Source of the DNA: Alphaproteobacteria bacterium
GTDB lineage: Bacteria; Pseudomonadota; Alphaproteobacteria; Rs-D84
NCBI GenBank assembly: GCA_017615655.1
Contig: JAFZZS010000007.1
Location: forward strand, 59,463 to 123,462
DNA length: 64,000 bases
Reading direction: 5' to 3'
The notes under the pieces: model-generated
The model's input: the letters and a program-made list of their open reading frames with translations, nothing else
Databases searched by the model: none
Told to the model about the DNA's origin: nothing
Translations under genes and position numbers: made by a program
Shown: in pieces, positions 10,021-24,313 of the stretch
Layout: each line of letters begins with the position of its first letter
Numbering within the stretch: the stretch's first letter is position 1

Positions 10021-10221
10021 ACGAACATTTTATATGCTCGGTCAAAGATTGTTGCCTCTCTGACGAATCGAAATATAATACAACAAAATGCATTTGTCAA
10101 GTGTTTTTGTCAAAATATTTTTTTGGTCAAATTAAACCTGCCGGTTTTCCTAGGAAATGGTGCTTGTTGTTGTTCAAGGCAATCTGTCATAAAATCTTTC
10201 TTGTAATTAAGGGGGGGATTT

Positions 10222-10470: not shown

Positions 10471-10510
10471 TGTGAAAAATCATCCCGTTTTGTGAATACC
10501 GGCAATATAA

Positions 10511-10981
10511 ATGCCGGTTTTTTTGTTGGACAGTCTGTTTTTAATAGATTATTCTGTAAGTATGTTATCAGGAATTCGAATTTTCTCATCCGATAAATAT
10601 TGGCAACGAATCGTTGCTGAATTGAATGCGACATTGGTCCAAGATTCAAAATTTGCGGATATTAACCTGGATACCCTGAATTTATCTCTACCCATTTCAT
10701 TAATTGAATTAAAATCGATAATGCTTTCTGTATCCGATGGGGATGCGGTTTTAAAAAAGATTTTTGATAAACCTGTTAATCTATCACCATTGCAAACTCA
10801 AATTGTGGTTAAACTTTACAAAAGTGGTGGCATGACAGCGGACGAACTTAAAATATCTTTGGGGTACGATATAAATGCAACCACACATACAGTTGAAACG
10901 GCTATATACAGTCTGCGTAAACTATTTGGACATAATTTTATAATAAATGACGAAGGAATATTTAAGATTGGCGGGATATAA
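10511..10981 (+). CDS. OmpR/PhoB-type winged-helix DNA-binding protein without receiver domain
   Basis: C-terminal LSPLQTQIVVKLYKSGGMTADELKISLGYD...TVETAIYSLRKLFG...GIFKIGG matches the trans_reg_C winged helix. The N-terminal 80 aa has no receiver motifs. True start may be the internal Met at 10565. Confidence 0.5.
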   Translation: MPVFLLDSLFLIDYSVSMLSGIRIFSSDKYWQRIVAELNATLVQDSKFADINLDTLNLSLPISLIELKSIMLSVSDGDAVLKKIFDKPVNLSPLQTQIVVKLYKSGGMTADELKISLGYDINATTHTVETAIYSLRKLFGHNFIINDEGIFKIGGI

Positions 10982-11633
10982 GGTATTATCTTTTGATAAA
11001 ATATCAAGTACACAGACATACGCACATGACATGATTGCCCAAGGGAAAGCATCTGACCGAATTGCAATTGTTGCAGCGGCACAGTATGCTGGTCGTGGTC
11101 GATATAGACGAAAATGGGTGTCTCATCACGGAAATCTGTACGTAAGTTTCATTTTCCATTGCCCAGAACGTGATCCGCGACTTTCATATGCAGTGGCGGT
11201 GGCAATTGCAGAAACGGTTATTTCTTTTGGAATATCGCCTTTGATAAAATGGCCAAATGACATTTTAATAGATAATGCCAAAGTGGCAGGCGCATTAATA
11301 GAATATGCTGGTCGATTCGTTATTGTTGGTATCGGAATAAACGTGCATACTAATCCCACAGTTCCAGAATATAAAACAACACGTTTGGACAAGTATAATG
11401 ATATTGAACTAACAGACCTGATGTCACGACTTGTAAAGAATTTAGACAGGTTTATAAATGCGGATTTTGATTTGGTGCGTAAAAGGTGGATGGAACTTGC
11501 CGCAGGATTGAACAAACTTGTAAAATATCGTGGCGAAATGGTGGAACTTATTGGGGTTAATGATAATGGTGCATTGGTCGTACGTCGTGGTTCTGAATAT
11601 TTATTGATTCATGGTGACGAAATTTTAATGTGA
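10947..11633 (+). CDS. birA: biotin-[acetyl-CoA-carboxylase] ligase BirA (catalytic plus C-terminal domain, no HTH)
   Basis: SSTQTYAH...IAIVAAAQYAGRGRYRRKWVSHHGNLYVS matches the BirA GRGRRGR-KW loop; KVAGALIEY. Confidence 0.85.
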   Translation: MTKEYLRLAGYKVLSFDKISSTQTYAHDMIAQGKASDRIAIVAAAQYAGRGRYRRKWVSHHGNLYVSFIFHCPERDPRLSYAVAVAIAETVISFGISPLIKWPNDILIDNAKVAGALIEYAGRFVIVGIGINVHTNPTVPEYKTTRLDKYNDIELTDLMSRLVKNLDRFINADFDLVRKRWMELAAGLNKLVKYRGEMVELIGVNDNGALVVRRGSEYLLIHGDEILM

Positions 11634-11670
11634 TGTATACGGCAGAAAACCGGTGTTTTTTATAAACTAC

Positions 11671-11699
11671 TTGACTTTAGGTCCTTTTTATGATATTAT
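11671..11699 (+). promoter_or_regulatory. consensus sigma70 promoter (TTGACT-17-TATTAT)
   Basis: -35 TTGACT at 11671..11676, a 17-nt spacer, -10 TATTAT at 11694..11699; drives the leader with tandem hairpins. Confidence 0.6.
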
Positions 11700-11726
11700 G
11701 ATGTACATCAAGGGGAAAGATATATT

Positions 11727-11776
11727 CACACGCAGGTGTGGATTTTTTTTTATACCGCACACATGTGCGGTTTTTT
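11727..11776 (+). terminator. two tandem terminator-like hairpins directly downstream of the promoter (candidate sRNA 3' ends or attenuator)
   Basis: cacac-gcag-gtgtg plus T9 (11727..11751), then ccgcac-acat-gtgcgg plus T6 (11755..11776). Confidence 0.5.
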
Positions 11777-11802
11777 CTTTGTAACCAAAGGAAATAAAAA
11801 TC

Positions 11803-12213
11803 ATGCAATTGGAAATTACTGAAATGCAGAACGGGACAATCTGTTTGGCAAATGCTATTGCGCGTATTGTTTATGCCGAAACTCTTGCGGTTTCTTTGCG
11901 GGTGATAGAAGCATTAACTTCCATGATTGCGAATGCAACACTAAATAACCGGCATGAAATAATAAAGATGTTATCAGATAAAAATATTTTCGAATCATTG
12001 AATACCGAATCATCGCGACATAAATATTTATCGGTGGATACATCAATACGTGGTTTCCAGGTTTGTGTACGTGTTGCAATTAGGATGTTGCATGGTAATT
12101 TAGATGATAGGTGTAATCACGCAACAAAGTTTCATCGGTCAGAATTATTACCCAGTTGGGCGATTGCATGTGGTTATGTCGCAGATATAGATGGAATATT
12201 GTTCTATGCATAA
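11803..12213 (+). CDS. hypothetical protein, possibly SleB-like cell-wall hydrolase (phage endolysin?)
   Basis: 136 aa; weak resemblance of TICLANAIARIVYAE to the Hydrolase_2 CLAxAIYxEA motif. First gene of the phage-like cluster. Confidence 0.3.
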   Translation: MQLEITEMQNGTICLANAIARIVYAETLAVSLRVIEALTSMIANATLNNRHEIIKMLSDKNIFESLNTESSRHKYLSVDTSIRGFQVCVRVAIRMLHGNLDDRCNHATKFHRSELLPSWAIACGYVADIDGILFYA

Positions 12214-12231
12214 ATTCAAAGGAATCGTCAT

Positions 12232-12420
12232 ATGGAACGTTTTATCCATGGTGGTTTTTTTGCGAATCGCAAAATACAGATAATGACATGTGTCGGAATA
12301 GTATCCGCGTTGTGTGCATATCTTGTTGGCGATTCGGATATATATGCCACCGCCCAGGCAATTATTGCGGTCTGTGGTGTTTATTGGTTGCATAAATCTA
12401 AAACTAGTAAAGGAAAATAA
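12232..12420 (+). CDS. small single-TM membrane protein (holin-like?)
   Basis: 62 aa; hydrophobic core VGIVSALCAYLVG...AIIAVCGVYWL; basic C-terminus. Confidence 0.3.
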   Translation: MERFIHGGFFANRKIQIMTCVGIVSALCAYLVGDSDIYATAQAIIAVCGVYWLHKSKTSKGK

Positions 12421-12421
12421 A

Positions 12422-13078
12422 ATGGAAAATATACCAGAAAAATTTTTAAACAAAGACGGCACACTAAACAGTGATGCATTGATGAAATCATATTCTGAAC
12501 TTGAAAAAAAGATTGGAACGATGATATCTGTTCCTGATGACGAATCAGATGAAGCAACGCAAAACCGCTTTCGTCGGGCGATTGGTGTTCCTGAAAGTGC
12601 TGATGATTATCCACATAATGAATTATTTGATAATGAAAATGTACGTCAAAAATTTCATGAAATTGGTTTAACAAGTTCACAAGTTGAAAAAATTTATGAT
12701 ATCGCCGAAGAATTTTTATCACCGATGTTTTCAAGAATTTTTTCTATTGAACAAGAATCAAATGCGATGCTAGAACTGAAAAAATTTTTTGGCTCAGATG
12801 AAAAAATGCGTGATGCATTTATTGCAATAAAATCTTTTGGCGAGAAATTTTTACCTGTAGACGCATTTAATGAATTATGCGCCAGCCCCCAGGGAATACA
12901 AGGCATTTACAAGATGATGCAATCAATGGAACCAAGTGTTGAAACTGCTACATCAACTATAGAAAATTTAACTGATTCTGATTTACGTCGTATGATGCGT
13001 GATCCAAAATATTGGCGCGATCACGATGAAGAATATGTGCGTAAAATTGAAAACGGATTTAAAAAATTATATTCCTAG
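12422..13078 (+). CDS. acidic phage scaffold-like protein (position-equivalent to T7 gp9)
   Basis: 219 aa, very acidic and helical; lies immediately upstream of the capsid gene; RBS aaaggaaaataaaATG. The ORF-track start at 12314 is probably upstream read-through. Confidence 0.4.
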   Translation: MENIPEKFLNKDGTLNSDALMKSYSELEKKIGTMISVPDDESDEATQNRFRRAIGVPESADDYPHNELFDNENVRQKFHEIGLTSSQVEKIYDIAEEFLSPMFSRIFSIEQESNAMLELKKFFGSDEKMRDAFIAIKSFGEKFLPVDAFNELCASPQGIQGIYKMMQSMEPSVETATSTIENLTDSDLRRMMRDPKYWRDHDEEYVRKIENGFKKLYS

Positions 13079-13196
13079 TGAATATTTTTGATAAAAAAAT
13101 TACTTTTCTTCTTTACTAATTTTTTTCTTTCGTATAAAATGAAATCAAGAACAAAAGAATTTGTTCTATCCAAAAAAAATACGAAAGGAGAGAAGA

Positions 13197-13490
13197 ATGG
13201 CATTCACATTCTTGAAAACCGCTGCAAAGAAGCCTGCAGCAAAGAAACCGGCAGCAAAGAAACCAGCTGCAAAGAAACCAGCTGCAAAAAAAGTTGCAGC
13301 AAAGAAACCAGCAGCAAAGAAACCAGCTGTAAAAAAAGTTGCAGCAAAAAAACCAGCAGCAAAGAAACCAGCTGTAAAAAAAGTTGCAGCAAAGAAACCA
13401 GCTGCAAAGAAAGTTGTTGCAAAAAAAGTTGCAGCAAAGAAACCAGCTGCTAAAAAAGCTTGCGCAAAAAAATGTGCAAAGAAAAAATAA
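13197..13490 (+). CDS. histone H1-like basic repeat protein (AAKKP pentapeptide repeats)
   Basis: MAFTFLKTAAKKPAAKKPAAKK...; 15-nt tandem repeats; SD aaaggagagaagaATG 7 nt upstream. The other two same-region ORFs (13088..13453, 13116..13505) are repeat-induced artefacts. Confidence 0.6.
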   Translation: MAFTFLKTAAKKPAAKKPAAKKPAAKKPAAKKVAAKKPAAKKPAVKKVAAKKPAAKKPAVKKVAAKKPAAKKVVAKKVAAKKPAAKKACAKKCAKKK

Positions 13491-13510
13491 TAATGTTATA
13501 GACATTATGA

Positions 13511-13586
13511 AATGCCCGTAAAATCGGGCATTTTTTTATATTAAAAATTTTCAGTCAGATATAAAAAGTCTGACTGAATCTTTTTA
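13511..13586 (+). terminator. two consecutive rho-independent terminators
   Basis: atgcccg-taaaat-cgggcat plus T7 (13511..13538); tcagtcaga-tataaaaa-gtctgactga plus T5 (13551..13586). Confidence 0.75.
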
Positions 13587-13715
13587 TGGATAATCCATTT
13601 TTTATGGACCCAATTCGATTTGTTTTCGGCGTCACATCGACATAACCGCTAATAAATTATTTGGCGGGCAAAATTTGTTTGCCTTGATTTAATCATTTTA
13701 ACAAAAGGAAAAATT

Positions 13716-14531
13716 ATGTCTGTTTCCATAGATCAGGTTTTTGTAAAACAATTTGAAGCAGATGTCCATTTGGCTTATCAGCAAATGGGAACAAAACTGC
13801 GTTCTACGATTCGCAGCAAATCTGGGGTCGTAGGCACTTCTACAACATTTCAAAAAATTGGCAAAGGAACTGCCAGCACGAAATCACGTCATGGTATTGT
13901 GCCAGTCATGAATCTTAATCATGCACCCGTAGAATGCACATTGCAGGATTATTACGCAGGTGATTGGGTTGACGCACTGGATGAATTGAAAATCAATATT
14001 GATGAACGTCGTGTTGTTGCATCTGCAGGCGCGTATGCATTGGGTCGCAAAACAGATGAATTAATCGTTGCGGCAATGAACAATGCAACCACATATGTTG
14101 GTGATTATTCCACAGGTCTTACCAAAACGTTAATTTTAACAGCACTGGAAAAATTAAATGAAAAAGATGTTCCAGATGATGGACGCAGATTCGGTGTTAT
14201 CGGTGTAAAGCAATGGAATGAATTGCTTGGTATAACCGAATTTTCATCCGCAGATTATGTTGGAAACGATTTGCCATTCATTAACGGATGCGAAACAAGA
14301 AAGTGGCTTGGTATTACATGGATTATGTATAACGATTTACCAATCTCTTCGGCGCATCGCGATTGCTTTATTTATCATGCTTCAAGTGTCGGGCATGCGT
14401 GTGGCCAAGAGGTTAAGACCGATATTACATGGCATGGTGAACGTGCAGCACACTTTATCAGCAATAGTATGTCGCAAGGGGCAGTATTAATAGACAGTGA
14501 TGGTATTGTGCGTGTTAAATGTGGCGAATAA
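13716..14531 (+). CDS. T7-like major capsid protein (gp10 homologue, shortened)
   Basis: VFVKQFEADVHLAYQQMGTKLRSTIRSKSGVVGTSTTFQKIGK parallels T7 gp10 LFLKVFGGEVLTAFARTSVTTSRHMVRSISSGKSAQFPVLGR. 271 aa. Confidence 0.7.
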   Translation: MSVSIDQVFVKQFEADVHLAYQQMGTKLRSTIRSKSGVVGTSTTFQKIGKGTASTKSRHGIVPVMNLNHAPVECTLQDYYAGDWVDALDELKINIDERRVVASAGAYALGRKTDELIVAAMNNATTYVGDYSTGLTKTLILTALEKLNEKDVPDDGRRFGVIGVKQWNELLGITEFSSADYVGNDLPFINGCETRKWLGITWIMYNDLPISSAHRDCFIYHASSVGHACGQEVKTDITWHGERAAHFISNSMSQGAVLIDSDGIVRVKCGE

Positions 14532-14548
14532 AACAAAGGGAGTAGGCA

Positions 14549-14779
14549 ATGGCTTTTCAGAATAAAAATTTGTCGGTAATTGCGTATGCAAATGGTTTTA
14601 CGTTGTGGCATTACGCTGCGAATGAAACAATGGCAACCATCACAGCAAGTGGTTATTTTAATATGGTCAAAACATTGATGAATACAGGTGATGTTGTGAT
14701 TATCAATGCATCTGATAAAACATCAATTAAAAAAATTGCTGTGGGTGATAGTGCTGTTACAACTGCCGCATTAGATTAA
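14549..14779 (+). CDS. small phage-cluster protein of unknown function
   Basis: 76 aa ORF between the capsid and gp11-like genes. Confidence 0.35.
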   Translation: MAFQNKNLSVIAYANGFTLWHYAANETMATITASGYFNMVKTLMNTGDVVIINASDKTSIKKIAVGDSAVTTAALD

Positions 14780-14788
14780 TTTTTTTGA

Positions 14789-14825
14789 ATCGGGCCGGAT
14801 TTCCGGCCCAAATTTAATTTTTATA
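14789..14825 (+). terminator. rho-independent terminator after the capsid gene block (position analogous to T7 Tphi)
   Basis: cgggccgga-tt-tccggccc then aaatttaattttt. Confidence 0.65.
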
Positions 14826-14839
14826 AATAAGGTAGAAAA

Positions 14840-15358
14840 ATGCTAACGAAAATAGATTTATGTTCAATGGCGTTGTTAAAACTTGGTGAAAATCCAATTC
14901 AATCATTGTCAGATGATACCGCAACCGCAAAGCTTGGGCGTACGTTGGTCGATTTTGTTATAGATAGTTTGCTTACGATGCATCCGTGGAAATTTGCATG
15001 CAGAACATATAACCTGAATGCGAATATAGACGGTAGTTTCAATATACCCACAGATGTATTGCGTATTGTTAAAACAAATGGTCGCGTAATGGAAGATAAA
15101 ATAATTTCAGATTCTAAAGAAATTAGTATTACCGCGATTGTGCGTATATCTCCGGACAAATTTCCAAACTATTTTTCATCGCTTGTTGTAACAAAACTAG
15201 CCACAGAATTTTGTATGCCTATTACAGGCGATCAAACCGTATTTAGAACACTGGTCGCACTTTATGAAACAGAGTTACAAAATGCAAAATTCATAGACAG
15301 CACAACGTCGATAAATCCACAAATAGAAAATTTTTCACTTGTAGATGTTCGTTTCTAG
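14840..15358 (+). CDS. tail tubular protein A (T7 gp11 homologue)
   Basis: CSMALLKLGENPIQSLSDDTATAKLGRTLVDFVIDSLLTMHPWKF aligns with T7 gp11 [42 protein letters not shown]. Confidence 0.65.
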   Translation: MLTKIDLCSMALLKLGENPIQSLSDDTATAKLGRTLVDFVIDSLLTMHPWKFACRTYNLNANIDGSFNIPTDVLRIVKTNGRVMEDKIISDSKEISITAIVRISPDKFPNYFSSLVVTKLATEFCMPITGDQTVFRTLVALYETELQNAKFIDSTTSINPQIENFSLVDVRF

Positions 15359-15373
15359 TGTACGGGGGAAATC

Positions 15374-17080
15374 ATGGGAAATTTTATAAAAACACAAACT
15401 TCATTTGCTAATGGCGAGATTTCGCCCAATTTTTTTGCGAATGATAATATGCATGGTCTTGCATATATGGAAAATATGGATGTTATCCCGGGTGGGGGAC
15501 TTACCAGGCGTGCCGGACTAAAATCATTAGCTACATTACCATCTAGTGCCAGACTGATTTCTTTTTCAGCGTCTGAAAATGATAATTATGTCCTAGCGAT
15601 TATGAATGGAATTATTCGCGTGTTTTCTAGTGGCGAATTTGTGCAAGATATTATAGCGCCATGGACATCAAATGATTTGATGAAATTGCAATATGCGCAA
15701 CGTTTTGGAACGATAATATTTGTTCATCCAGATTATAAACCGCGAATACTTTCTTGTGAATCCAGCTCATTTCAATTGCTAGAATTTACATTTACATATA
15801 CCGATGATTTAAACAACATAAATATGCCGTTTATGCGATTCGAAGACTCTGAAGGTATAACATTAACACTTACGCATACAAATGACGGAGTGCAACTTAC
15901 AACGAATCAAGATTTTTGGACTCAAGATAATGTTTATGGGCATTTATCATTGCTTGGTAAAACATTTCTGGTACAAAGTTATATAGATTCGCGGAATATA
16001 ATCGCAGTATGTAATGGAACATTTACATACCCAAATACGCCAGTGTCTGATTGGAAAGAGGCGGTATTTAGTTATCGTCGGGGTTGGCCAATAAGCATAA
16101 CATTTCATCAAAATAGATTGGTGTTTGGCGGATCCAAATCATGGCCTGGTGGTGTTTGGATGTCTTGTGTCGGACAGCATAGAAATTTTAATACGGGTAC
16201 AGGACTTGATGACGAGGCGATATTTTTCACCTTACTATCAGGACGCAGGCAACATATTTGCACATTGGTAAGCAGTGATAATTTACAGATTCTTACATCT
16301 GAAGGCGAATGGGCGGTGTCCAATAAACCGCTGACACCCGAATCAGTAAATATAAAAATGCATACATCTGTGGGCAGTCCCGCGGATATATATTTGCCCC
16401 CACAAGAAATGGAAGGCAAAACGATATTCGTTTCTAATAACAAACAGGATATTCGTGAACTGACGTTGGATGAATTGGGCGAAAATTATAATGCGAATAA
16501 TTTATGCGAGTTATCTGCTCATTTGATACAAAAACCAATTGATATTGCGTACAACAAAAAACAAAAGCGTTTATTTGTCGTTATGCAAGACGGTAACATG
16601 GCCGTGTTAAATCGTGATGTATCACTGGATATATCTGCGTGGGGCCGTTATACCACAAGTGGTAAATTCTGTTCGGTCGTTGTTTGTGAAGGTAATACAT
16701 TTGTTGTTACGAAACGTGATACAACTTTTTATCTTGAGCAATTTTCTGATTCCGAAATGATAGATGCAACGAATCAAAAATATACGGTACGTGCCGTAGG
16801 GTTACCACTGATGTCGGCAGGGCATAATGCACACAAAATTCAAATAAGGAAGATTATTGCAAGATTGTATAATTCCAAGACGTTGTTTATAAATGGTCTG
16901 CGCGCAAATTTGCCCAATAATGCATATTCCATAGATTCTGGGGGGTATTCAGGCGACATTTCTATGAATACCATTGGAACATGTTTACCAATTAGTGACG
17001 CACCATGGGAATTATCTACGACAGATGCAATGCCGTTAACAATATTGTCTATAACAATATATGGCAGATATCAAATTTAA
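15374..17080 (+). CDS. tail tubular protein B (T7 gp12 homologue)
   Basis: N-terminus FANGEISPNFFANDNMHGLAYMENMDVIPGGGLTRRAGL...IRVFSSG parallels T7 gp12 LKGGISQQPDILRYPDQGSRQVNGWSSETEGLQKRPPL...GIRVFDLSG. 568 aa. Confidence 0.65.
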   Translation: MGNFIKTQTSFANGEISPNFFANDNMHGLAYMENMDVIPGGGLTRRAGLKSLATLPSSARLISFSASENDNYVLAIMNGIIRVFSSGEFVQDIIAPWTSNDLMKLQYAQRFGTIIFVHPDYKPRILSCESSSFQLLEFTFTYTDDLNNINMPFMRFEDSEGITLTLTHTNDGVQLTTNQDFWTQDNVYGHLSLLGKTFLVQSYIDSRNIIAVCNGTFTYPNTPVSDWKEAVFSYRRGWPISITFHQNRLVFGGSKSWPGGVWMSCVGQHRNFNTGTGLDDEAIFFTLLSGRRQHICTLVSSDNLQILTSEGEWAVSNKPLTPESVNIKMHTSVGSPADIYLPPQEMEGKTIFVSNNKQDIRELTLDELGENYNANNLCELSAHLIQKPIDIAYNKKQKRLFVVMQDGNMAVLNRDVSLDISAWGRYTTSGKFCSVVVCEGNTFVVTKRDTTFYLEQFSDSEMIDATNQKYTVRAVGLPLMSAGHNAHKIQIRKIIARLYNSKTLFINGLRANLPNNAYSIDSGGYSGDISMNTIGTCLPISDAPWELSTTDAMPLTILSITIYGRYQI

Positions 17081-17097
17081 AATCAAAGGAGTAACAA

Positions 17098-17445
17098 ATG
17101 GGACAAATGATTTCAGATGTATCAGATATATTGAATTATCAAAGTAATAAAAAAAATGCTAATGCAACAAAAAAACAAATTTTGGCCGATATTGTAGCTG
17201 ATGAAAATCAGAAACAAAATCTTGTTAAAAAAGTGCTGGCAACGCAACGTGCAAAATACGGGGCATCAGGTATGAATAACAAGGGGCTTACCGAGGATGC
17301 AGTGTTAACAAGGTTAAAAAAAGAAACCGAACAACCATATGATTCGAAAAAAGAGGTCAATATTAGAAAGTTGAAAAATGCCAAGGTAAAAAAGAAAAAT
17401 TTATTGCTAACTGCATTGGCACATTTGGACAAATTGGTCGGATGA
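17098..17445 (+). CDS. putative small terminase subunit (position of T7 gp18)
   Basis: 115 aa, basic, directly upstream of terL; assignment by position only. Confidence 0.3.
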   Translation: MGQMISDVSDILNYQSNKKNANATKKQILADIVADENQKQNLVKKVLATQRAKYGASGMNNKGLTEDAVLTRLKKETEQPYDSKKEVNIRKLKNAKVKKKNLLLTALAHLDKLVG

Positions 17446-17449
17446 TAAT

Positions 17450-18043
17450 ATGAGTGTTTATAGCCAATTTTTAGATTCTTGGAACGAGGTAATCGGGTTT
17501 ACCGCTCCGGAACACCATTATCATATGACAGATTTTCTGGGAAATGTTATTAACGGAAATTCACGTCATGGATTACTAATGGCGTTTAGGCATTCTGGTA
17601 AATCAACGATTGTTGGAATTTTTGCGGCTTGTACTTTGTTTTTACGTCCGGAAACGCGAATATTAATATTGTCAGCAGAAACCCACCTTGCTACACGAAT
17701 GGTTATGCATATTCGTAATATATTGGAAAATCATCCATGGTGTACAGATTTGGTGCCAAAAAATAAACGCGAATGGGCGGAAAATAAAATAACGGTTAAT
17801 CGAGCCATAGGAATTCGTGAACCATCGGTTGTTTGTCAGGGAATATACGGCAATATAACAGGAATGCGTGCAGATTTAATAATATGCGATGATGTAGAGG
17901 TTCCAAACACCTGTAACACCGCGAGAAAGCGTACAGGACTGCGCGACAAATTGCGCGAACTTGATTTTATACTTTCACCAAACGGTGCGATGATTTACAT
18001 TGGAACCCCGCATACATTGGACACAATTTACAGAACAGACTAA
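17450..18043 (+). CDS. terminase large subunit, N-terminal ATPase fragment (gene interrupted)
   Basis: Walker A AFRHSGKST; Walker B ADLIICDDVE; motif III IYIGTPHT. The ORF stops after 197 aa, where the ATPase domain is incomplete. Confidence 0.8.
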   Translation: MSVYSQFLDSWNEVIGFTAPEHHYHMTDFLGNVINGNSRHGLLMAFRHSGKSTIVGIFAACTLFLRPETRILILSAETHLATRMVMHIRNILENHPWCTDLVPKNKREWAENKITVNRAIGIREPSVVCQGIYGNITGMRADLIICDDVEVPNTCNTARKRTGLRDKLRELDFILSPNGAMIYIGTPHTLDTIYRTD

Positions 18044-18702
18044 TTTTCTATAGAATTTGTCTGTTGGGGCAAGGAACTAATCAATGTGTGCAATTTCTGT
18101 AACAATTCGGATCCTTCTTCACCAAACATGGGTAAATATGTTTCATATTCTGGCAAATCTACCTGAAGTTGCGCACGCACACGATCATTTACAGGTTGCT
18201 TGATAAGGTCTTTGGCTTTTATCCATATATTATAAGCATTCCACATACGTGCAATTTGATCAAACTTGTCGAACATGTCAGTATCATTTGTCAGTATAGT
18301 TCGTATAGATGAAACCCAATCCGAACCAAAGCGACGAACAACGGGCGTAGATATGAAATTCTCTAGACCACGTTGATTCGGGGTAAAGGCGTTAATAGCA
18401 ACCTTTAATTCTTTTAGTTCCGGTTCTGTTATTTGAGTGTTTATTGGGCGTTCCGCAAATATACCACCATATGGTAATAATTCGCGAGATATAGAATCCA
18501 TAGGGGTCTTGCCACTGCGCAGGTTATTTATATGTTCAGATAATAATTTACCTGTCGGTAAATCTTTTAGTTCCTGGATTACGTCATCGGTGGCTTCGTC
18601 AATAAAAATTTTGTTTAACACGGACCAACCGCCTGCGATAACATGTGCTTGACGATAAAGGTTTAACAACTTCTGTGCGACAATGCTTGCTTTGGCTTTC
18701 AT
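18040..18702 (-). CDS. hypothetical protein (part of the insertion within terL)
   Basis: 220 aa; no motif recognised; stop codon overlaps the stop of the terL N-fragment convergently. Confidence 0.4.
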   Translation of the reverse strand: MKAKASIVAQKLLNLYRQAHVIAGGWSVLNKIFIDEATDDVIQELKDLPTGKLLSEHINNLRSGKTPMDSISRELLPYGGIFAERPINTQITEPELKELKVAINAFTPNQRGLENFISTPVVRRFGSDWVSSIRTILTNDTDMFDKFDQIARMWNAYNIWIKAKDLIKQPVNDRVRAQLQVDLPEYETYLPMFGEEGSELLQKLHTLISSLPQQTNSIEN

Positions 18703-18729
18703 CTCGTTTAATCCCCCATATTTAAAGAT

Positions 18730-19740
18730 TTATTCGGTCAAAACCATAATAACTTTGTGCATAGTTTTGGCGGTAATTTTCTCGTCAGGTGATATCATTT
18801 GACCATAAACTTTGCCCTTGGAGTCTTTACGAATCACTGCGATATTTGCACGAACAGTTTCTTCGGGTTTAAGTGCTTTGAAATCGGCGTCTATAAAGAC
18901 CGCCAAATCACCAACCGTGGCATTTATCTTCGCGTCTGCAAAAACATATGATTTTTCCGGAATAAAACCACCAAGACGCTTTGAATTTGGAATAACCGCA
19001 TAAACACCCTTGCGACCTTCAAGATTCGCAGGAGCATTTATCATTGTATTATCCGATTTTTTTAATGCGATATACTTGCCATCTGGATGACCAAATACGG
19101 GTACCAATTTACGACGTGCGGTTTCATATAATTTTGCACTGTAAAGGTGCCCTTGGGAATCACCGAAATCTGCGGACGAATCACCTGGAACCAAAATAGA
19201 TTTTACACGTTCTTTGACTTTGTTCATTTGTTTGATAAGTTCACCAGATTTGTAAAGTTGAGCAATTTTATCAAACATCGTCTCAACAGAACAAGCAAAC
19301 GAATTCGCAAGTGGTTCTATTTCATTTTGATATACTTCGCGCTGACCAACTTCAATTTTATGATAAACTGATAAGGTCATACCAGCATCTTTCGCCGCCT
19401 GAGCAATAGTCTTTCCGGATTGTTGGCGAATTTTACGTAACCCGCTACCAAATAATTTAAGACCACTGTCTTCGTTATCATTCATACGGCGTGTGATTTC
19501 GTCCTGCCATTTAGATGCAACTTCGTCTGTATCTTTGATAAAAATATCTGACAGCTTACAGCCCAAAATATTGCAGATATTCAACAACTGTTTTTGATTA
19601 AGGCGTCGGACACCTTTTTCAATCTTGGACACTGCAGACAAAGACAATCCTGAACGACGTGCCAGTTCAGTCATCTTCATACCTGCTGCAAGACGAATAT
19701 TGCGAATATTGTTTGGAAAAATGATTTCTTCCTGGGCCAT
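18730..19740 (-). CDS. CI-like transcriptional repressor with two XRE-family HTH domains and a degenerate S24-like C-terminal domain
   Basis: HTH1 NIRLAAGMKMTELARRSGLSLSAVSKIEKG; HTH2 LRKIRQQSGKTIAQAAKDAGMTLSVYHKIEVG; C-terminal beta-rich domain lacks a clear GDSM catalytic Ser-Lys dyad. Confidence 0.7.
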   Translation of the reverse strand: MAQEEIIFPNNIRNIRLAAGMKMTELARRSGLSLSAVSKIEKGVRRLNQKQLLNICNILGCKLSDIFIKDTDEVASKWQDEITRRMNDNEDSGLKLFGSGLRKIRQQSGKTIAQAAKDAGMTLSVYHKIEVGQREVYQNEIEPLANSFACSVETMFDKIAQLYKSGELIKQMNKVKERVKSILVPGDSSADFGDSQGHLYSAKLYETARRKLVPVFGHPDGKYIALKKSDNTMINAPANLEGRKGVYAVIPNSKRLGGFIPEKSYVFADAKINATVGDLAVFIDADFKALKPEETVRANIAVIRKDSKGKVYGQMISPDEKITAKTMHKVIMVLTE

Positions 19741-19762
19741 GTAAACCTCCTTGTATAAAATC

Positions 19763-19781
19763 TTGACAAAATGATAGTCAA
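19763..19781. promoter_or_regulatory. palindromic operator TTGACaaaatgataGTCAA overlapping the -35 of the repressor promoter
   Basis: On the minus strand: TTGACT-17-TTTATA-caAGGAGGtttacATG; the inverted repeat TTGAC-N9-GTCAA spans the -35 and spacer. Confidence 0.5.
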
Positions 19782-19817
19782 ATTTTGAAAACTTGGCAAG
19801 AAAATAATTATATAAAA

Positions 19818-21377
19818 TTACAAATCGATATCATCTGGTATTGCATTGATATCAATTTTGGGAACATCGGCGACCTGTTCAGGTGTATTTGATGCGAAAT
19901 CATCCGAGAACCCAGGAACATTGCTTTCCATTTCGTTAAGGTTATCAAACAAACTAAATTCTGCAAGGAAAGCAAGATGAACAGTATCTGTGCGCCCATG
20001 ACGGTTTTTCCCAATGATAAGGTCCGCTTTGCCTTTGGCTTTTTCTAGTCGAGCCTGCCAAGAACCCACAGATTTTTCGTTTGGCGTATTTGATAAGCGG
20101 TAAGATGGATCCCGGTTCTGCAAGTAATATTCCTCGCGATAGGTGAACATAACAATGTCAGCATCCTGTTCAATTGACCCGGAATCACGTAAATCGGATA
20201 ATTGTGGTCGTTTATCATCACGTGATTCGACACTGCGCGAAAGTTGTGAAAGTGCAATGACCGGAACATTTAATTCCTTGGCAAGCATCTTTAGACCGCG
20301 CGTTATTTCTGACAATTCTTGAACGCGGTTATCCTTGTTTTTGCCGCCTGGCGAAGTAATAAGTTGTAAATAGTCAATAACAATAAGCGAGATTCCATTA
20401 TATTTTCTGGCAAGCCTCCGTGCGCGAGTGCGTATCATCGGAACTGACATACCAGGTGTGTCATCAATGAACAAAGGAATACGACTTATTGCATCGGAAA
20501 ACTGGGTTAATTTTAGAAAATCTTCATCTGTCAAAGATTTACCTTCGCGCATTGCAGATGCCGGGATTCGTGATTGTGACGACAGCACGCGTGCAGCTAA
20601 TTCAGAGGCCCCCATTTCAAGACTGAAAAAGGCGACCGCACCTTTGAATTGCGGATTCGCACGTCCAGAGTAAATTGCGTTTGCCGCATTAAATGCGATA
20701 TTCATGGCCAATGCAGTTTTACCCATACCTGGACGACCAGCAATTATAAGCAAATTGGACTTATGCATTCCACTTATTGCACGATCCAAATCGGTTAACC
20801 CGGTTGTTAAACCAGATAAGTTGCCATCAGCCTTGTAAGCGATTTCTGTTTCAACAAGTGCTTCCTTTAGGGCATTTGCAATCGGAACGACGTCGCGACC
20901 AACATCCCCAGTAGTTGCCAAATTAAAAAGTTTTTGTTCGGCATTTTCAACCTGGGCAGACACTGGATTGTCCATATCTTCGACAAACGCATCATCCATG
21001 ATAGATTGCGCAAGATTTATAAGTTCACGACGCGTTGCATTTTCATGAACAATACGACCATATTGTTCAACATTTACTACGGTTGCACTGGCCCCAGCAA
21101 GTTGAGTCAAATAATCAACACCACCAACGGATTCCAGGGTACCTTGTTGATCCAAATAATTCTTTATAGTGATTATGTCAAATGGTACACCTGCCGCAAA
21201 CAACCGTACAGCAAGTTTATAAATTTCCTGGTGTGCAGGATGAGAAAAATCTTCGGGGCGCAGGAATTCGGTAACCTTTTCCAGTGCGCGATTGCTTATC
21301 AAAATCGCGGCCAATACGGCCTGTTCGGCCTCGATATTTGTTGGTAAAGTTTTGGGAGTAAAGTCCATGTCAAACAT
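19818..21377 (-). CDS. dnaB: replicative DNA helicase DnaB (full length, bacterial type) with short acidic C-terminal extension
   Basis: N-terminal domain LPTNIEAEQAVLAAILIS; Walker A IIAGRPGMGKTALAMN; Walker B LIVIDYLQL; arginine finger region; 519 aa. Confidence 0.92.
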   Translation of the reverse strand: MFDMDFTPKTLPTNIEAEQAVLAAILISNRALEKVTEFLRPEDFSHPAHQEIYKLAVRLFAAGVPFDIITIKNYLDQQGTLESVGGVDYLTQLAGASATVVNVEQYGRIVHENATRRELINLAQSIMDDAFVEDMDNPVSAQVENAEQKLFNLATTGDVGRDVVPIANALKEALVETEIAYKADGNLSGLTTGLTDLDRAISGMHKSNLLIIAGRPGMGKTALAMNIAFNAANAIYSGRANPQFKGAVAFFSLEMGASELAARVLSSQSRIPASAMREGKSLTDEDFLKLTQFSDAISRIPLFIDDTPGMSVPMIRTRARRLARKYNGISLIVIDYLQLITSPGGKNKDNRVQELSEITRGLKMLAKELNVPVIALSQLSRSVESRDDKRPQLSDLRDSGSIEQDADIVMFTYREEYYLQNRDPSYRLSNTPNEKSVGSWQARLEKAKGKADLIIGKNRHGRTDTVHLAFLAEFSLFDNLNEMESNVPGFSDDFASNTPEQVADVPKIDINAIPDDIDL

Positions 21378-22215
21378 AGTATATGAAAAAAATGTTTTTT
21401 CAACCCCTTTTTTATCGGGTTACGATGAACTAAGAATCCCAATCATTAATTCCGACGGAAGACCAGTATGGCCCGAAGTATTTCCAATTGAAAAGATTGA
21501 AAAAATTCGTAAAACCGTTGGAGAACGACATTTTTTGGCCCAAATGATGCTAGATTATGTTCCGTCAGATAAAATTAGACTTGATCCGGGGAGCATCAAG
21601 TTATATGACGATGATTTTGATATACATAATTCCAAATTAGGAGAAAATCAAATCACTGGTATGGCAATTTACTGGGATCCATCCAGTGGTCGCAAAAATT
21701 CTGACAACAGTGTGTGTGTTCTTATTTATCGTGATGACAAAAATATGCGTGTATTTGTGCACGATATACTTTATATGATTGTTCCCGAGACCGTTGAATA
21801 CCCATTGGCATATCAATGTAATCAGGCTTTGGAATTTGTGCGGCGTCATCATGGGCATAATATACATGTTGAAACAAATGGAATAGGTGGGGCTTTTCCA
21901 GAAATAATGCGAACCAATAATCCAAATTCGCAATACAAAGTTCAAATTTTGCCGATAAGTAACAGCCGGCGCAAAGAAGATCGGATTCTAGATACCATAG
22001 AGCCACTGTTAAGCACAGGGCGGCTTTATGCGCATCGCCGTATAACACAAACTCCACTAATAGCAGAAATGTTGGCATGGACCCCACTAGGCAGTGGGGA
22101 ACATGATGATGGTTTAGATGCATTAGCGGGGGCAATTAATGCGCATCCAAATGTGGTGCGCCCAATGGCATCGACATTTCAAAGATATGTTGCCAACACA
22201 AACTTTAAAATCTAA
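21367..22215 (+). CDS. terminase large subunit, C-terminal (lid plus RNaseH-like nuclease) fragment
   Basis: Nuclease motifs GMAIYWDPSSG and GEHDDGLDALAGAI. Start codon overlaps the dnaB start (21377) on the opposite strand. Confidence 0.78.
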   Translation: MSNIVYEKNVFSTPFLSGYDELRIPIINSDGRPVWPEVFPIEKIEKIRKTVGERHFLAQMMLDYVPSDKIRLDPGSIKLYDDDFDIHNSKLGENQITGMAIYWDPSSGRKNSDNSVCVLIYRDDKNMRVFVHDILYMIVPETVEYPLAYQCNQALEFVRRHHGHNIHVETNGIGGAFPEIMRTNNPNSQYKVQILPISNSRRKEDRILDTIEPLLSTGRLYAHRRITQTPLIAEMLAWTPLGSGEHDDGLDALAGAINAHPNVVRPMASTFQRYVANTNFKI

Positions 22216-22236
22216 CAAATAACAAAAGGAATAATT

Positions 22237-23463
22237 ATGAAATATGATTTACAAAAAATGTATACGCATGCATTGGCGGTTCGTGAACCATGGCTTAAAA
22301 GGTGGTACGATGCGCGCAAGTACACAATGCCGACATCAGATGAAGATATGGCAATGTTATTTGATGCGACCGCTGCGGATGCTGCAGATAACCTGGCAGC
22401 ATGTATGTATTCTTTGCTTACGCCCCCGGAATCATTGTGGTTGAATCTTGTTCCCGAAAGCCCAGAATCACCAAATGCAGAAGTTGCAACAGCTGTACTG
22501 CGTGCAAATCTTAACGATTCAAATTTTTATACAACAATTCATCAATGCTATATGGATTTGGTAACATTGGGAACGGCCTGTTTATTTATGGCAGAAAGTC
22601 CAATTGGTGCATCCAGTGCATTTTCATTTACTGCAATTCCAATGAAAGACATTGCGATTTTGCCGAATGCAGTTTTTCATACCACATCTATTTCGATTAG
22701 TGACGTGATGGCGCGTTATCCAGAATGGACACCTACACGTGAAATTGCCGACAAATTAAAACAAAATACCGATTTTTCGGTACGTTTAGTCCAGGCATTA
22801 ATAGGTTCTGATTTTACAGCGTGGTTGGATGTTGGTGGAAATCTTGAAAACAATATTGTATCGTGCGGAACGTTTGAAACAAATCCATACTTAATTTTCC
22901 GTTGGTCCGTAACCAGTGGTGAGCAATATGGTGTCGGACCAATTTTACGTGCATTACCTGATATAAAAACCGCAAATAAAGTTGTGGAACTGGTTTTGAA
23001 AAACGCAACTATTGCCGTCAGTGGTATATGGCAGGCAGACGATGATGGTGTCATAAATCTTGAAAATATTAATTTAACCCCCGGGGCAATAATTCCAAAA
23101 GCAGTAGGTAGCAGCGGTTTGACTCCACTTGCCACTGGGGCAAATTTTGATGTTTCACAAATTATACTAAAAGATCTACGCGAACGAATTCGTCATGCAT
23201 TACTTGCCGATAGATTGGGATTATTATCTGAAAAAGAAATGACGGCCACTGAAATATTGGCACGTAACGCGGACATGTTACGCATATTGGGTGCGACGTA
23301 TGGTCGATTATTGCACGAATTTATTCGTCCACTTTGTGACCGGGGACTGCAAATACTGTCACGTCGTGGTATCATAGATAAAATATCATTGCACAGTGAT
23401 GCGGAGTTAAAATACATTGCACCAATTGCCCAAATGGTTGCAGAAAACAACACAATTATATAA
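22237..23463 (+). CDS. head-to-tail connector (portal) protein, T7 gp8-like
   Basis: WLKRWYDARKYTMPTSDED parallels T7 gp8 YERLKNDRAPYETRAQNCAQYTIPSLFPKD. FRWSVTSGEQYGVGPILRALPDIKTANKVVELVLKNA parallels gp8 MVRLDGESYGRSYIEEYLGDLRSLENLQEAIVKMS. Confidence 0.7.
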   Translation: MKYDLQKMYTHALAVREPWLKRWYDARKYTMPTSDEDMAMLFDATAADAADNLAACMYSLLTPPESLWLNLVPESPESPNAEVATAVLRANLNDSNFYTTIHQCYMDLVTLGTACLFMAESPIGASSAFSFTAIPMKDIAILPNAVFHTTSISISDVMARYPEWTPTREIADKLKQNTDFSVRLVQALIGSDFTAWLDVGGNLENNIVSCGTFETNPYLIFRWSVTSGEQYGVGPILRALPDIKTANKVVELVLKNATIAVSGIWQADDDGVINLENINLTPGAIIPKAVGSSGLTPLATGANFDVSQIILKDLRERIRHALLADRLGLLSEKEMTATEILARNADMLRILGATYGRLLHEFIRPLCDRGLQILSRRGIIDKISLHSDAELKYIAPIAQMVAENNTII

Positions 23464-23476
23464 CAGGGAATTTATT

Positions 23477-23683
23477 ATGAGAAATTTAGAATTGTCATAC
23501 GCTAAGACATTTTCATCTGATTCTGGCGCAATTGTTATCGCACATTTGCGCCGAATAACAATTGAACGTGTGTTGGGACCAAATGCAACAGAATCAGAAT
23601 TACGTACACTTGAAGGCGCACGCGCATTGGTACATCAAATTGAACAGTTGATATTACGGGGGCGGCAAAATGCAAAAACATAA
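23477..23683 (+). CDS. hypothetical small protein (start uncertain)
   Basis: ORF 23417..23683; plausible start at MRNLELSYAK. Confidence 0.3.
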   Translation: MRNLELSYAKTFSSDSGAIVIAHLRRITIERVLGPNATESELRTLEGARALVHQIEQLILRGRQNAKT

Positions 23684-23927
23684 TGGTATCAGCGGAATAA
23701 TAGAAACATTACGCAACAGTTGGTTTTTAATTGCGTTTATTGCGGGACTTATATACTGGGTTGCGCGCCAGGATAATGCATTGATCGAACTTGATAGGTT
23801 AACTGTTCGAATGACTACATTAGAAAATCGTACTACGGTATTAGAAACAGGAATAGGGCAATTACAATTAAAAATCGATGCAATCAAAGAAGATTTGACT
23901 CTAATTAAAACTGCCGTGATTAAGTAA
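23670..23927 (+). CDS. small membrane protein with C-terminal coiled coil (holin/spanin-like?)
   Basis: TM segment WFLIAFIAGLIYWVA; heptad-like LTVRMTTLENRTTVLETGIGQLQLKIDAIKEDL. Confidence 0.35.
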   Translation: MQKHNGISGIIETLRNSWFLIAFIAGLIYWVARQDNALIELDRLTVRMTTLENRTTVLETGIGQLQLKIDAIKEDLTLIKTAVIK

Positions 23928-23956
23928 AAAATCCCCCGCATTTTGCGGGGGAATAA
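23926..23956. terminator. rho-independent terminator (mainly for yraN on the minus strand)
   Basis: tcccccgc-atttt-gcggggga with an A-run on the plus side, which is a U-run for the minus-strand transcript. Confidence 0.75.
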
Positions 23957-23967: not shown

Positions 23968-24309
23968 CTAGAATGCATTCTTTATCCAGTCAACATGTAG
24001 ACCATGAACAATAATAACATCAAATCTGGCATCACCTGACCATTTCTTTTTTATCAAGAATGTTTCTGCCGATAATCGTAATCGTCGTCGTTGTTGTTCC
24101 GAAATCGCATCCCACGCAGCATCTATAGTTTTACGGTGTTTGACCTCGATAAATACAATCAAATTTTTACGTTTCGCAATGATGTCAATTTCTGCACGAC
24201 CAGTATGTTTCCCAGTTACATATCTTCTGCGTAAAATCCTAAACCCACGCAGAATTAAATAAATGCATGCAACAAATTCACTAAATAATCCGGTTTTATA
24301 TGAATCCAT
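23968..24309 (-). CDS. yraN: YraN-family (UPF0102) endonuclease-like protein
   Basis: GRAEIDIIAKRKNLIVFIEVKHR core motif; the ORF track extends to 24393, but the start is probably an internal Met. Confidence 0.7.
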   Translation of the reverse strand: MDSYKTGLFSEFVACIYLILRGFRILRRRYVTGKHTGRAEIDIIAKRKNLIVFIEVKHRKTIDAAWDAISEQQRRRLRLSAETFLIKKKWSGDARFDVIIVHGLHVDWIKNAF

Positions 24310-24313
24310 ATTC

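Follow-up and report, generated by a model that had tools for sequence, protein, structure and literature searches.

A 12-kb gene module that is very likely a domesticated, selectively maintained set of podoviral particle genes was found in a 64-kb stretch of contig JAFZZS010000007.1 (the whole stretch is called the window below), from a metagenome-assembled genome (MAG) of Candidatus Enterousia, order Rs-D84. The module occupies window positions 11.7 to 23.9 kb, reads on the plus strand, and is tightly packed between birA and yraN (Table 1). We regard it as probable that this is a vertically inherited, phage-derived particle system fixed in Enterousia/Rs-D84, similar to gene transfer agents (GTAs) and of independent podoviral origin. 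The source genome belongs to a group with genomes of <1 Mb, roughly 0.75 to 1.0 Mb in Enterousia; in Rs-D84, to which Enterousia belongs, most genomes are smaller than 1 Mb, and the tricarboxylic acid cycle and respiration are missing (PMC12306168). An identical capsid protein is also present on a 272-kb metagenome scaffold.

Virion genes of T7 architecture

The module jointly encodes a T7-architecture virion set, namely, a gp8-type portal, a gp9-type scaffold, an HK97-fold capsid, a gp11-type adaptor, and a gp12-type nozzle. The T7-like homologies that the first-pass annotation had read from the translations (scaffold, capsid, tail tubes A and B, and portal) all hold in profile searches against Pfam and PHROG. 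The capsid protein matches the major capsid protein of the podophage LME-1 (PDB 9EG4) over its full length with an E value of 1e-23 and is 82 to 95% identical among 80 species, with a ratio of nonsynonymous to synonymous substitution rates (dN/dS) of 0.05. The small protein o76, encoded in the position of the LME-1 head-decoration gene, is syntenic in phage-like relatives and in the Rhodospirillales elements described below (dN/dS, 0.07). A GC-rich hairpin (14792 to 14809) does follow the capsid-o76 pair, where a terminator comparable to that of T7 had been proposed; it has no T-run.

The adaptor scores slightly below the cutoff of the Pfam family Tube (21.4 bits versus 22.3) and has PDB matches to 8ck1_E and 9efk_T. 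The nozzle matches 8ck1_A, annotated as "Tail Nozzle" (E value, 6e-29), and 9efk_M, has a dN/dS of 0.11, and is shortened to 568 amino acids (aa) from the 632 to 830 aa seen in relatives, a loss of about 65 residues. The portal, whose PDB matches are 9efk_A, 8ck0, and T7 portals, is without the approximately 100 to 145 C-terminal residues of its relatives (511 to 554 aa) and has a dN/dS of 0.05. The gene for a Bbp19-like protein directly follows the portal gene in all relatives, both phage-like relatives and Rhodospirillales elements.

Conservation, selection, and chromosomal setting

Relatives of the capsid protein were found in 469 species-representative genomes. The loci compared here are the best 80 of these 469 matches, all of them from Enterousia or from uncultured alphaproteobacterial gut or rumen MAGs, and about 75 cover the module. 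All of these approximately 75 species-level loci have the same gene order, strands, and full-length open reading frames (ORFs), including both halves of the large terminase and the three genes between them, and share the same set of upstream host genes (trmA-like, o82, o156, and birA). Comparison of related genomes at the birA-yraN locus thus recovers the same gene set at the same chromosomal site. Apart from the fixed split of the terminase gene, no frameshifts, truncations, patchy presence, or relaxed selection was detected in these loci.

Module dN/dS values, estimated from species pairs with unsaturated synonymous distances (dS), range from 0.05 to 0.17, compared with 0.05 for host dnaB, 0.08 for birA, and 0.115 for the trmA-like gene. 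Purifying selection on the module is as strong as that on housekeeping genes. Pairwise protein distances of the module genes correlate with those of DnaB (r, 0.74 to 0.90), as do those of birA (0.83) and the trmA-like gene (0.87), and the capsid diverges at 0.47 times the rate of DnaB. The module is inherited vertically with its host. GC content, GC content at third codon positions, and codon bias of the module all fall within the host range, in agreement with the host-like base composition noted earlier; the reading of the cluster as maintained rather than decaying is likewise borne out by structural genes that are intact, colinear, under measured purifying selection, and codiverging with the host.

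These data bear most directly on the view that the module is an inert prophage remnant in which decay has not yet begun. Its split terminase, its missing fiber and core genes, and a gene order rearranged relative to phages are what such a remnant might display, but intact ORFs in about 75 species with near-saturated synonymous sites, a capsid more conserved than DnaB, and an invariant promoter all speak against it, as does the tendency of genomes of <1 Mb to shed nonessential DNA. Recent transfers of a single element are disfavored by the codivergence with host genes. We consider the remnant explanation effectively refuted.

The same species pairs revealed a lower median dS for o62, scaffold, capsid, and o76 (0.61 to 0.75; positions 12232 to 14779) than for neighboring module and host genes (approximately 0.9 to 1.4). 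This suggests extra synonymous-site constraint, arising from expression level or RNA structure.

Both flanks of the cluster were identified as previously placed, and they are housekeeping in character: PriA, LpxI, and BirA upstream and YraN, BamA, and RseP downstream, the remainder of the window encoding PriA, LpxI, an outer membrane protein, BamA, RseP, tRNA synthetases, and three tRNAs. No further phage genes were found in the 64 kb, either by tblastn with the ORFs of relatives or by Pfam and PHROG searches of the large unknown ORFs, and the window holds no complete contiguous prophage. It is therefore highly improbable that the module is one arm of an autonomous prophage with its other genes elsewhere on the chromosome. 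The window covers 64 kb out of some 0.75 to 1.0 Mb of genome, and GTAs such as that of Rhodobacter capsulatus (RcGTA) also have distal loci; against this stand the housekeeping flanks on both sides, the lack of other phage homologues in the window, provirus calls in IMG/VR that extend here over only 10 to 12 kb, and sister elements in complete genomes that are 15 to 17 kb long and bounded by host genes.

Among the other window genes, the largest encodes a 1,472-aa protein (33885 to 38303) with no Pfam or PHROG matches, and further sizeable ORFs without matches lie at 60710 to 62110, 7334 to 8293, and 24314 to 25132. A VirB8-like protein is encoded just downstream of yraN (25785 to 26483, minus strand), and in L174, a locus from a deeper lineage (portal 55% identical), the corresponding neighborhood (16573 to 20701) contains a VirD4/TraG-type coupling protein too. 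These genes hint at a type IV secretion system adjoining the module in this lineage.

A two-piece terminase around host dnaB

The large terminase (TerL) assigned earlier to ORFs starting at 17450 and 21367 is of T7 type, as confirmed by phrog_38 and PF22530. The two halves are real; what had been missed is the cause of the split, a host-type dnaB together with two other genes, and that the arrangement is ancient and fixed. TerL-N aligns with residues 41 to 211 of T7 gp19 (4bij/8dgc; E value, 7e-23) and has a dN/dS of 0.05; its 120 best database homologues are all 177 to 217 aa long. TerL-C (dN/dS, 0.13) has no match to PDB sequences at an E value of ≤1.

An alignment of 76 Enterousia N-plus-C pairs with the unsplit TerL proteins of Terasakiella (496 aa) and Rhodovibrio (503 aa) contains 97 columns that are invariant in all 78 sequences. 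These include Walker A (GKS), Walker B (ICDDxEVPNT), motif III (GTPH), and the three nuclease motifs (WDP, ExNGxG, and DDxxDA). TerL-N and TerL-C are contiguous on the unsplit Terasakiella protein, and both halves keep every catalytic motif. The break falls in a variable loop five residues past motif III, TerL-N ending in TIYRTD-stop and TerL-C resuming with MSNIVYEKNVFSTPFL. The Pfam nuclease domain of TerL-C begins only after approximately 100 residues, which places the break within the ATPase domain. At its N terminus TerL-C carries about 13 additional residues, and combined, the halves match the unsplit 496-aa TerL.

The gap between the halves measures 3.3 kb and holds three minus-strand genes. 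The first, o220, has no Pfam, NCBIfam, or PHROG matches; its place is taken in L174 by an 834-aa ORF. The second encodes a 336-aa double helix-turn-helix (HTH) protein with matches to PHROG repressor families and a dN/dS of 0.06, a possible regulator. The third is dnaB, which we considered as a phage replication gene and rejected as such: it passes the chromosomal NF006606 equivalog model (577 bits; cutoff, 540) and fails the phage_DnaB model TIGR03600 (401 bits; cutoff, 498). An earlier statement that the module has no replication genes is therefore true only of phage-type genes. L174 has the order terL-N, dnaB (minus strand), and terL-C, with a different second gap gene, and therefore the association of the split with dnaB predates Enterousia. 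The split is ancient, fixed, and selectively maintained.

Several ways of splitting or restoring the gene were discarded. The gap contains no transposase, reverse transcriptase, or endonuclease, which excludes an insertion sequence, transposon, intron, or homing endonuclease. A split intein with protein trans-splicing was rejected because the halves sum to the unsplit 496-aa TerL, leaving no room for intein fragments. Excision in the manner of the skin element is very unlikely, as the gap has neither flanking direct or inverted repeats nor a recombinase, and excision would delete dnaB. With no room for an intein, no gap repeats, and no recombinase, the halves would have to act as separate polypeptides.

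Two further features of L174 were observed. A translated match to the window tRNA-Arg (43543 to 43619) lies at approximately 2048 to 2232 of that locus, between the o115-like gene and terL-N, where a tRNA gene is probably located inside the module, and a ParA-like gene stands between terL-C and the portal gene.

Lysis genes and small basic proteins

The first-pass annotation had listed lysozyme among the missing functions and had overlooked three candidate lysis genes. The first gene of the module, o136, resembles a PF07486 Hydrolase_2 protein that ends the Terasakiella element (BLASTP E value, 3e-14) and matches the endolysin family phrog_938 (E value, 0.002), has a homologue in pelagiphage Hodr, and shows a dN/dS of 0.15. 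Next to it, o62 is kept in all loci (dN/dS, 0.09), and its two transmembrane (TM)-like segments and basic C terminus point to a holin-like function. At the other end of the module, the XhlA-like o85 (dN/dS, 0.05) may be a lysis accessory protein; L174 has a Phage_lysozyme gene in this position.

Two small basic proteins are also encoded. A histone H1-like protein of Lys/Ala/Pro repeats, (AAKKP)n, contains 38 lysines and no acidic residues, is a true reading frame with its own ribosome-binding site, and is followed by a strong terminator. Its gene is a fixed component of the interval between scaffold and capsid, present in 79/80 loci at lengths of 60 to 164 aa. The product may condense DNA inside the particle, or it may be a nucleoid protein of the host whose gene is carried along in the operon.

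The second, o115, is the basic ORF of small-terminase size that had been proposed directly upstream of TerL-N, and it is indeed present, with an isoelectric point (pI) of 9.9. All of its 201 homologues are about 115 aa long and Enterousia-like. An AlphaFold2 model (pLDDT, 77) has three helices and found no significant fold match in PDB (best E value, 0.72), and a weak match to phrog_418 was obtained (E value, 0.0099). We list o115 as a candidate small terminase or gp14-like internal protein. The protein starts with MGQ and has an invariant QRAKYGASG motif. A small protein family is encoded directly upstream of the portal gene in Rhodospirillales elements (L170, 5318 to 5527; L175, 6243 to 6446; L176, 6777 to 7097), with an N terminus of MGG-F and a C terminus of RGxxGxxxTSxRG...KTLLGD/E, to which o115 is possibly distantly related.

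Parts not found in the window

As stated earlier for T7 polymerases, gp14-16 core, gp17 fiber, and integrase, none was detected within the 64 kb. The window contains no phage single-subunit RNA polymerase or phage DNA replication genes, and no integrase, attachment-site or flanking repeats, or replication initiator occurs at the module. The RcGTA head-tail families (prohead protease, g5 capsid, tail tube, and megatron) were absent from the Pfam and PHROG results.

A particle gene set with these gaps could belong to a helper-dependent satellite, similar to the capsid-forming phage-inducible chromosomal islands (cf-PICIs), that builds its own heads and relies on a podophage infecting the cell for fibers or ejection proteins. 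Capsid, portal, terminase, and scaffold are present, the fiber and internal proteins are lacking in the window, and related free phage-like gut contigs exist, such as MT838907 with a capsid 63% identical. We nevertheless judge a satellite improbable, given that the module lacks an integrase, att repeats, and a replication initiator, occupies the same chromosomal position in all species, diverges in step with host genes, and has an essential host dnaB embedded in it.

Regulatory anatomy

A consensus scan identified a sigma-70-type promoter with an extended -10 element, TTGACT-17 nt-TGATATTAT, upstream of o136. Exact TTGACT occurs at this place in 63/65 species, and among 33 aligned species TTGACT-17 nt-TGATAnnAT is near-invariant in surroundings that vary. 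The first hairpin of two tandem intrinsic terminators starts approximately 25 nt past the promoter, ahead of the first module gene. In the 33-species alignment, hairpin 1 shows compensatory double changes at 6/6 pairs and an invariant T-run, and hairpin 2 varies in sequence while its pairing is kept. In lambdoid late operons, too, a strong promoter leads straight into tandem terminators that precede the lysis and structural genes, and by this analogy the leader would provide antitermination-type gating of the module.

A 225-nt gap precedes the capsid gene. Here a terminator and a perfect 11-bp inverted repeat, TTCAGTCAGAT-N7-GTCTGACTGAA, are conserved in an 81-species alignment, and further conserved blocks (GGATAATCC, GGACCC, TGGCGC, and GCATAACCA) lie between 13580 and 13700. 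No sigma-70-like promoter was recognizable in this gap, and neither the leader nor the capsid-upstream region yielded a known RNA family near Rfam gathering scores. The repeat and blocks could represent an operator or a promoter of unusual type, or they could function as an RNA element.

Upstream of birA, o82 corresponds to the N-terminal domain of an S24 (LexA/CI-like) repressor that has lost its peptidase domain. It is 54 to 61% identical to the N termini of the 210- to 213-aa Peptidase_S24 proteins of the Terasakiella, Rhodovibrio, and Magnetospirillum elements and has the lowest dN/dS among the genes tested (0.018), and we consider it a candidate regulator of the module. The neighboring o156 was examined as a homologue of the small repressor-adjacent ORFs of Rhodospirillales elements, hence as a candidate activator or antiterminator, and was rejected after a negative hhalign comparison.

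Phage relatives and sister elements

By capsid, the nearest phages are Pelagibacter phage Hodr (44% identical) and 32-kb Vibrio phages with an integrase. These are temperate podophages of 30 to 34 kb without RNA or DNA polymerase, so less has been lost than comparison with T7 suggests, and the approximately 40-kb, polymerase-bearing T7-like ancestor assumed at first must be abandoned. The module goes back to a small temperate podophage of LME-1/pelagiphage type with T7 virion architecture, not to an autographivirus.

The closest non-Enterousia relative seen is MT838907.1 (L087), an unannotated 5-kb "Bacteriophage sp." contig from human feces (Mexico) with a capsid 63% identical and the order portal-Bbp19-scaffold-capsid-o76-adaptor-nozzle. 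Dozens of 10- to 12-kb "viral genomes" among the uncultivated virus genomes of IMG/VR (L090 to L140) are the Enterousia chromosomal locus, host dnaB included, and virus databases therefore count a bacterial module as viruses. IMG/VR also holds distant relatives (capsid, 54 to 64% identical; portal, 41 to 46%), which exact look-ups placed in cultured Rhodospira/Roseospira, Terasakiella, Rhodovibrio, Magnetospirillum, and Skermanella. Within groups, Rhodospirillales capsids from different species, and even from different genera, share >90% identity.

No integrase or replication genes were found in the stretches of these sister elements that were read (Table 1). Their layout begins with a divergent S24 repressor (not seen beside the Rhodospira element) and two or three small ORFs, followed by portal, Bbp19, and scaffold; a cargo slot; capsid, o76, adaptor, and nozzle; and then a fiber-like gene, an unsplit TerL, and a lysis gene. 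The fiber is T7 gp17-like in Terasakiella (PHROG tail fiber families) and Rhodospira (a faint Phage_T7_tail match); the slot is occupied by Laminin_G_3 proteins in Magnetospirillum and by a 646-aa protein without a match in Rhodovibrio. TerL is unsplit in Terasakiella, Rhodovibrio, and Magnetospirillum, and the Rhodospira contig ends before TerL. The lysis gene encodes a Hydrolase_2 lysin in Terasakiella and GTA_holin_3TM in Rhodovibrio.

Families shared by Enterousia and Rhodospirillales are portal, Bbp19, scaffold, capsid (54 to 64% identical), o76, adaptor, nozzle, TerL, lysin, and the o82-type repressor. The Rhodospirillales elements differ in keeping the fiber, the full S24 repressor, a longer portal and nozzle, and a T7-like portal-to-terL order. 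Relative to them, Enterousia has lost the fiber, the repressor peptidase domain, the portal C terminus, and nozzle residues, and its module is a further reduced, rearranged member of a wider and apparently undescribed family.

The slot between scaffold and capsid carries a glutathione S-transferase and a peptidoglycan-binding protein in Terasakiella, an MCPsignal-like ORF in Magnetospirillum, small ORFs in Rhodovibrio, and the AAKKP gene in Enterousia. Another arrangement was seen in the metagenome contig L173 (8471 to 18273), whose capsid is identical to that of Thalassospiraceae bacterium LMO-SO8: capsid-o76-adaptor-nozzle-three small ORFs-portal-Bbp19-scaffold, with no terminase recognized nearby and a 507-aa ORF without a Pfam match 6 kb upstream.

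Table 1. Features of the Enterousia window and coordinates of sister elements
Sequence	Feature	Position	Strand	Evidence or remarks
Window	o82, 82-aa HTH protein	10222-10470	+	N-terminal domain of S24 (LexA/CI-like) repressor
Window	BirA-type ligase	10947-11633		Upstream flank of module
Window	Sigma-70-type promoter, extended -10	11671-11699	+	Consensus scan
Window	Tandem intrinsic terminators	11724-11777	+	Hairpin 11724-11743 + T9; hairpin 11754-11771 + T6
Window	o136, lysin-like	11803-12213	+	SleB/Hydrolase_2 homologue; first module gene
Window	o62, 62 aa, holin-like	12232-12420	+	Two TM-like segments (hydropathy), basic C terminus
Window	Scaffolding protein, T7 gp9 family	12422-13078	+	PF05396 E 2e-08; pI 4.75; dN/dS 0.12
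Window	(AAKKP)n Lys/Ala/Pro-repeat protein, histone H1-like, 97 aa	13197-13490	+	pI 11.07; 15-nt tandem repeat
Window	Terminator ahead of capsid gene	13509-13534	+	Conserved in 81-species capsid-upstream alignment
Window	Perfect 11-bp inverted repeat	13550-13578	+	Conserved in 81-species capsid-upstream alignment
Window	Major capsid protein, HK97 fold, LME-1/pelagiphage type	13716-14531	+	PF19821 E 1e-72
Window	o76, small conserved protein	14549-14779	+	Always 3' of capsid gene; phrog_18004 E 5e-12
Window	Tail tubular protein A/adaptor, T7 gp11 type	14840-15358	+	phrog_394 E 3e-32; dN/dS 0.08
Window	Tail tubular protein B/nozzle, T7 gp12 type	15374-17080	+	phrog_376 E 4e-80
Window	o115, basic, helical hairpin, 115 aa	17098-17445	+	Directly upstream of TerL-N; pI 9.9
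Window	TerL-N, ATPase core (Walker A, Walker B, motif III)	17450-18043	+	phrog_38 positions 274-459
Window	o220, conserved, 220 aa	18040-18702	-	In terL gap; all Enterousia loci
Window	Double-HTH protein, 336 aa, two Cro/C1-type domains	18730-19740	-	PF01381 E 3e-21, two stretches
Window	dnaB, host-type replicative helicase	19818-21314	-	In terL gap
Window	TerL-C, rest of ATPase domain + RNaseH-like nuclease	21367-22215	+	phrog_38 positions 468-712; PF22530 (T7-type RNaseH domain) E 1e-08; PF17289 E 5e-08
Window	Portal, T7 gp8 family	22237-23463	+	PF12236 E 2e-76, model positions 4-440 of 489
Window	Bbp19-like small protein	23477-23683	+	PF25181 E 3e-10
Window	o85, XhlA-like	23670-23927	+	One TM-like segment + coiled coil; PF10779 E 0.0055 (below cutoff); phrog_1193
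Window	YraN/UPF0102	23968-24393	-	Downstream flank of module
L170	Terasakiella pusilla element	3656-20509		~17 kb; host genes both sides
L172	Rhodovibrio salinarum element	3945-19295		~15.5 kb; host genes both sides
L175	Magnetospirillum aberrantis locus			Read in part; host genes upstream
L176	Rhodospira trueperi locus			Read in part; host genes upstream

Proposed function and its alternatives

We propose the following sequence of events. Transcription from the conserved promoter would normally stop at the tandem terminators, and an antitermination signal or regulation by HTH proteins would open the operon in some cells. Portal, scaffold, and capsid would then build a procapsid, with T=7 geometry and a diameter of about 60 nm if it is like that of LME-1. 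TerL-N and TerL-C would associate noncovalently as a packaging ATPase-nuclease and fill the heads with DNA; with no recognizable specificity subunit, the cargo would plausibly be host DNA packaged by headful. The adaptor and nozzle would close the head, and the lysin and holin-like proteins would release the particles. The module probably still makes DNA-filled particles; that it mediates gene transfer is a more tentative proposition.

The features by which GTAs are recognized in genomes are present: phage-derived genes for structure, packaging, and lysis that lie in the chromosome, are not accompanied by functions for integration, excision, or replication, are inherited vertically, and are under purifying selection. 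The functional hallmarks are predicted only and a delivery apparatus was not found in the window, and we therefore file the module as GTA-like rather than as a GTA.

Several points weigh against a GTA-like particle system. The 64-kb window contains no tail fiber (gp17), receptor-binding protein, or gp14-16-type ejection proteins and no recognizable small terminase, and therefore an injection-competent virion could not be assembled from the genes seen. The activity of a two-piece terminase cut inside the ATPase domain is a prediction. A T=7 head (approximately 30 kb), if LME-1 geometry is kept, would hold the 12-kb locus itself, unlike the heads of classical GTAs. The conservation described above is that of the best 80 matches, and particles, packaged DNA, and expression are predicted.

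Some of these points would fit a module kept for a function other than transfer, such as a DNA-free or self-DNA compartment, programmed lysis of a subpopulation, or podophage interference, in which the DNA or structural proteins of infecting podophages would be captured. Besides the lack of fiber and ejection proteins in the window, both portal and nozzle have been trimmed, which leaves transfer of DNA to a second cell in doubt; the module carries a fixed gene for a histone-like basic protein; and the selection measured could act on such a function. On the other hand, the invariant ATPase and nuclease motifs and the retained portal, adaptor, and nozzle argue for DNA packaging and a gated exit channel more than for a closed shell, and the sister elements of free-living relatives keep fibers. 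We consider such a nontransfer function unlikely and prefer the GTA-like particle system.

To our knowledge, very few independent domestications have given rise to GTAs, and almost all of those studied come from one siphovirus-like ancestor. If our reading is correct, a podovirus-derived system spread across hundreds of gut and rumen species would make particle domestication recurrent, and the module would define a naturally minimal set of parts for packaging DNA into particles in a genome of <1 Mb and would supply a natural split terminase for probing the cooperation of ATPase and nuclease. The sister elements in culturable bacteria open an experimental route. A systematic annotation error is also flagged, as IMG/VR and GenBank list chromosomal loci as viral genomes or phage.

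Comparison with known systems

No published description of the Enterousia, Rs-D84, or named Rhodospirillales elements was found in the literature. The new features are the fixed two-piece terminase around host dnaB, the putatively terminator-gated leader, the embedded histone-like gene, and the culturable sister family. With T7, the module shares the portal, scaffold, and terminase Pfam families and an order that is a permutation of 8-9-10-11-12-...-19; it differs in lacking RNA and DNA polymerase, gp14-16, and gp17, and its capsid, adaptor, and nozzle are only distantly related to those of T7. The cf-PICIs and other satellites encode their own capsid, portal, scaffold, and terminase and an incomplete virion. 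Satellites, in contrast, are mobile and encode an integrase, replication functions, and helper sensing, all of them features that the Enterousia module lacks.

The closest solved homologues of the module capsid, portal, adaptor, and nozzle are those of LME-1 (9EG4 and 9EFK), with 8ck0/8ck1 representing a related unnamed podophage. LME-1, an autonomous temperate podophage of 30 kb, has a T7-like tail on a 60-nm T=7 head, fibers, and internal virion proteins; it excises and replicates, packages no genome but its own, and was long dismissed as a nonfunctional remnant (PMC12407071). In LME-1, as in the module, the portal-adaptor-nozzle architecture is T7-like and a small gene follows the capsid gene; LME-1 has a T7-like gene order without sequence similarity to T7. 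The Enterousia module is 12 kb, immobile, and without fibers or internal virion proteins and has a split terminase.

Reduced genomes of alphaproteobacterial endosymbionts (Rickettsiales and Holosporales) keep RcGTA-type head genes under purifying selection (PMC9254644). Those clusters, like the module, are phage derived, vertically inherited, and alphaproteobacterial, and tail genes are less well retained in them than those for the head and portal (PMC9254644). The RcGTA ancestry is unrelated and of siphovirus type (prohead protease, tail tube, and megatron), with no gene families in common with the module, and RcGTA heads are oblate, with T=3 geometry and a capacity of approximately 4 kb.

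Podovirus-derived GTAs, which the first-pass annotation took to be essentially undescribed, have since been represented by FpGTA of Faecalibacterium prausnitzii, published in 2026 and described as the first podovirus-like GTA (PMC12946183). We tentatively suggest, with less confidence than we attach to the GTA-like reading itself, that the module represents a second, independently domesticated podoviral GTA lineage of LME-1/T7 architecture in early-branching Alphaproteobacteria, comprising Rs-D84/Enterousia and many Rhodospirillales, among them cultured Terasakiella, Rhodovibrio, and Magnetospirillum. The Enterousia form would be a fiberless minimal particle, with a two-piece terminase whose genes flank dnaB and with a host-adopted antitermination gating, in the style of late operons, at the promoter-proximal tandem terminators. 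By its description, FpGTA likewise is a GTA-like, podovirus-like system of a gut bacterium with structural, packaging, and lysis genes only; it differs in belonging to a member of the Firmicutes, in being divided between two loci, in having baseplate, fiber, and receptor-binding protein genes, and in having experimental evidence for the encapsidation of host DNA (PMC12946183).

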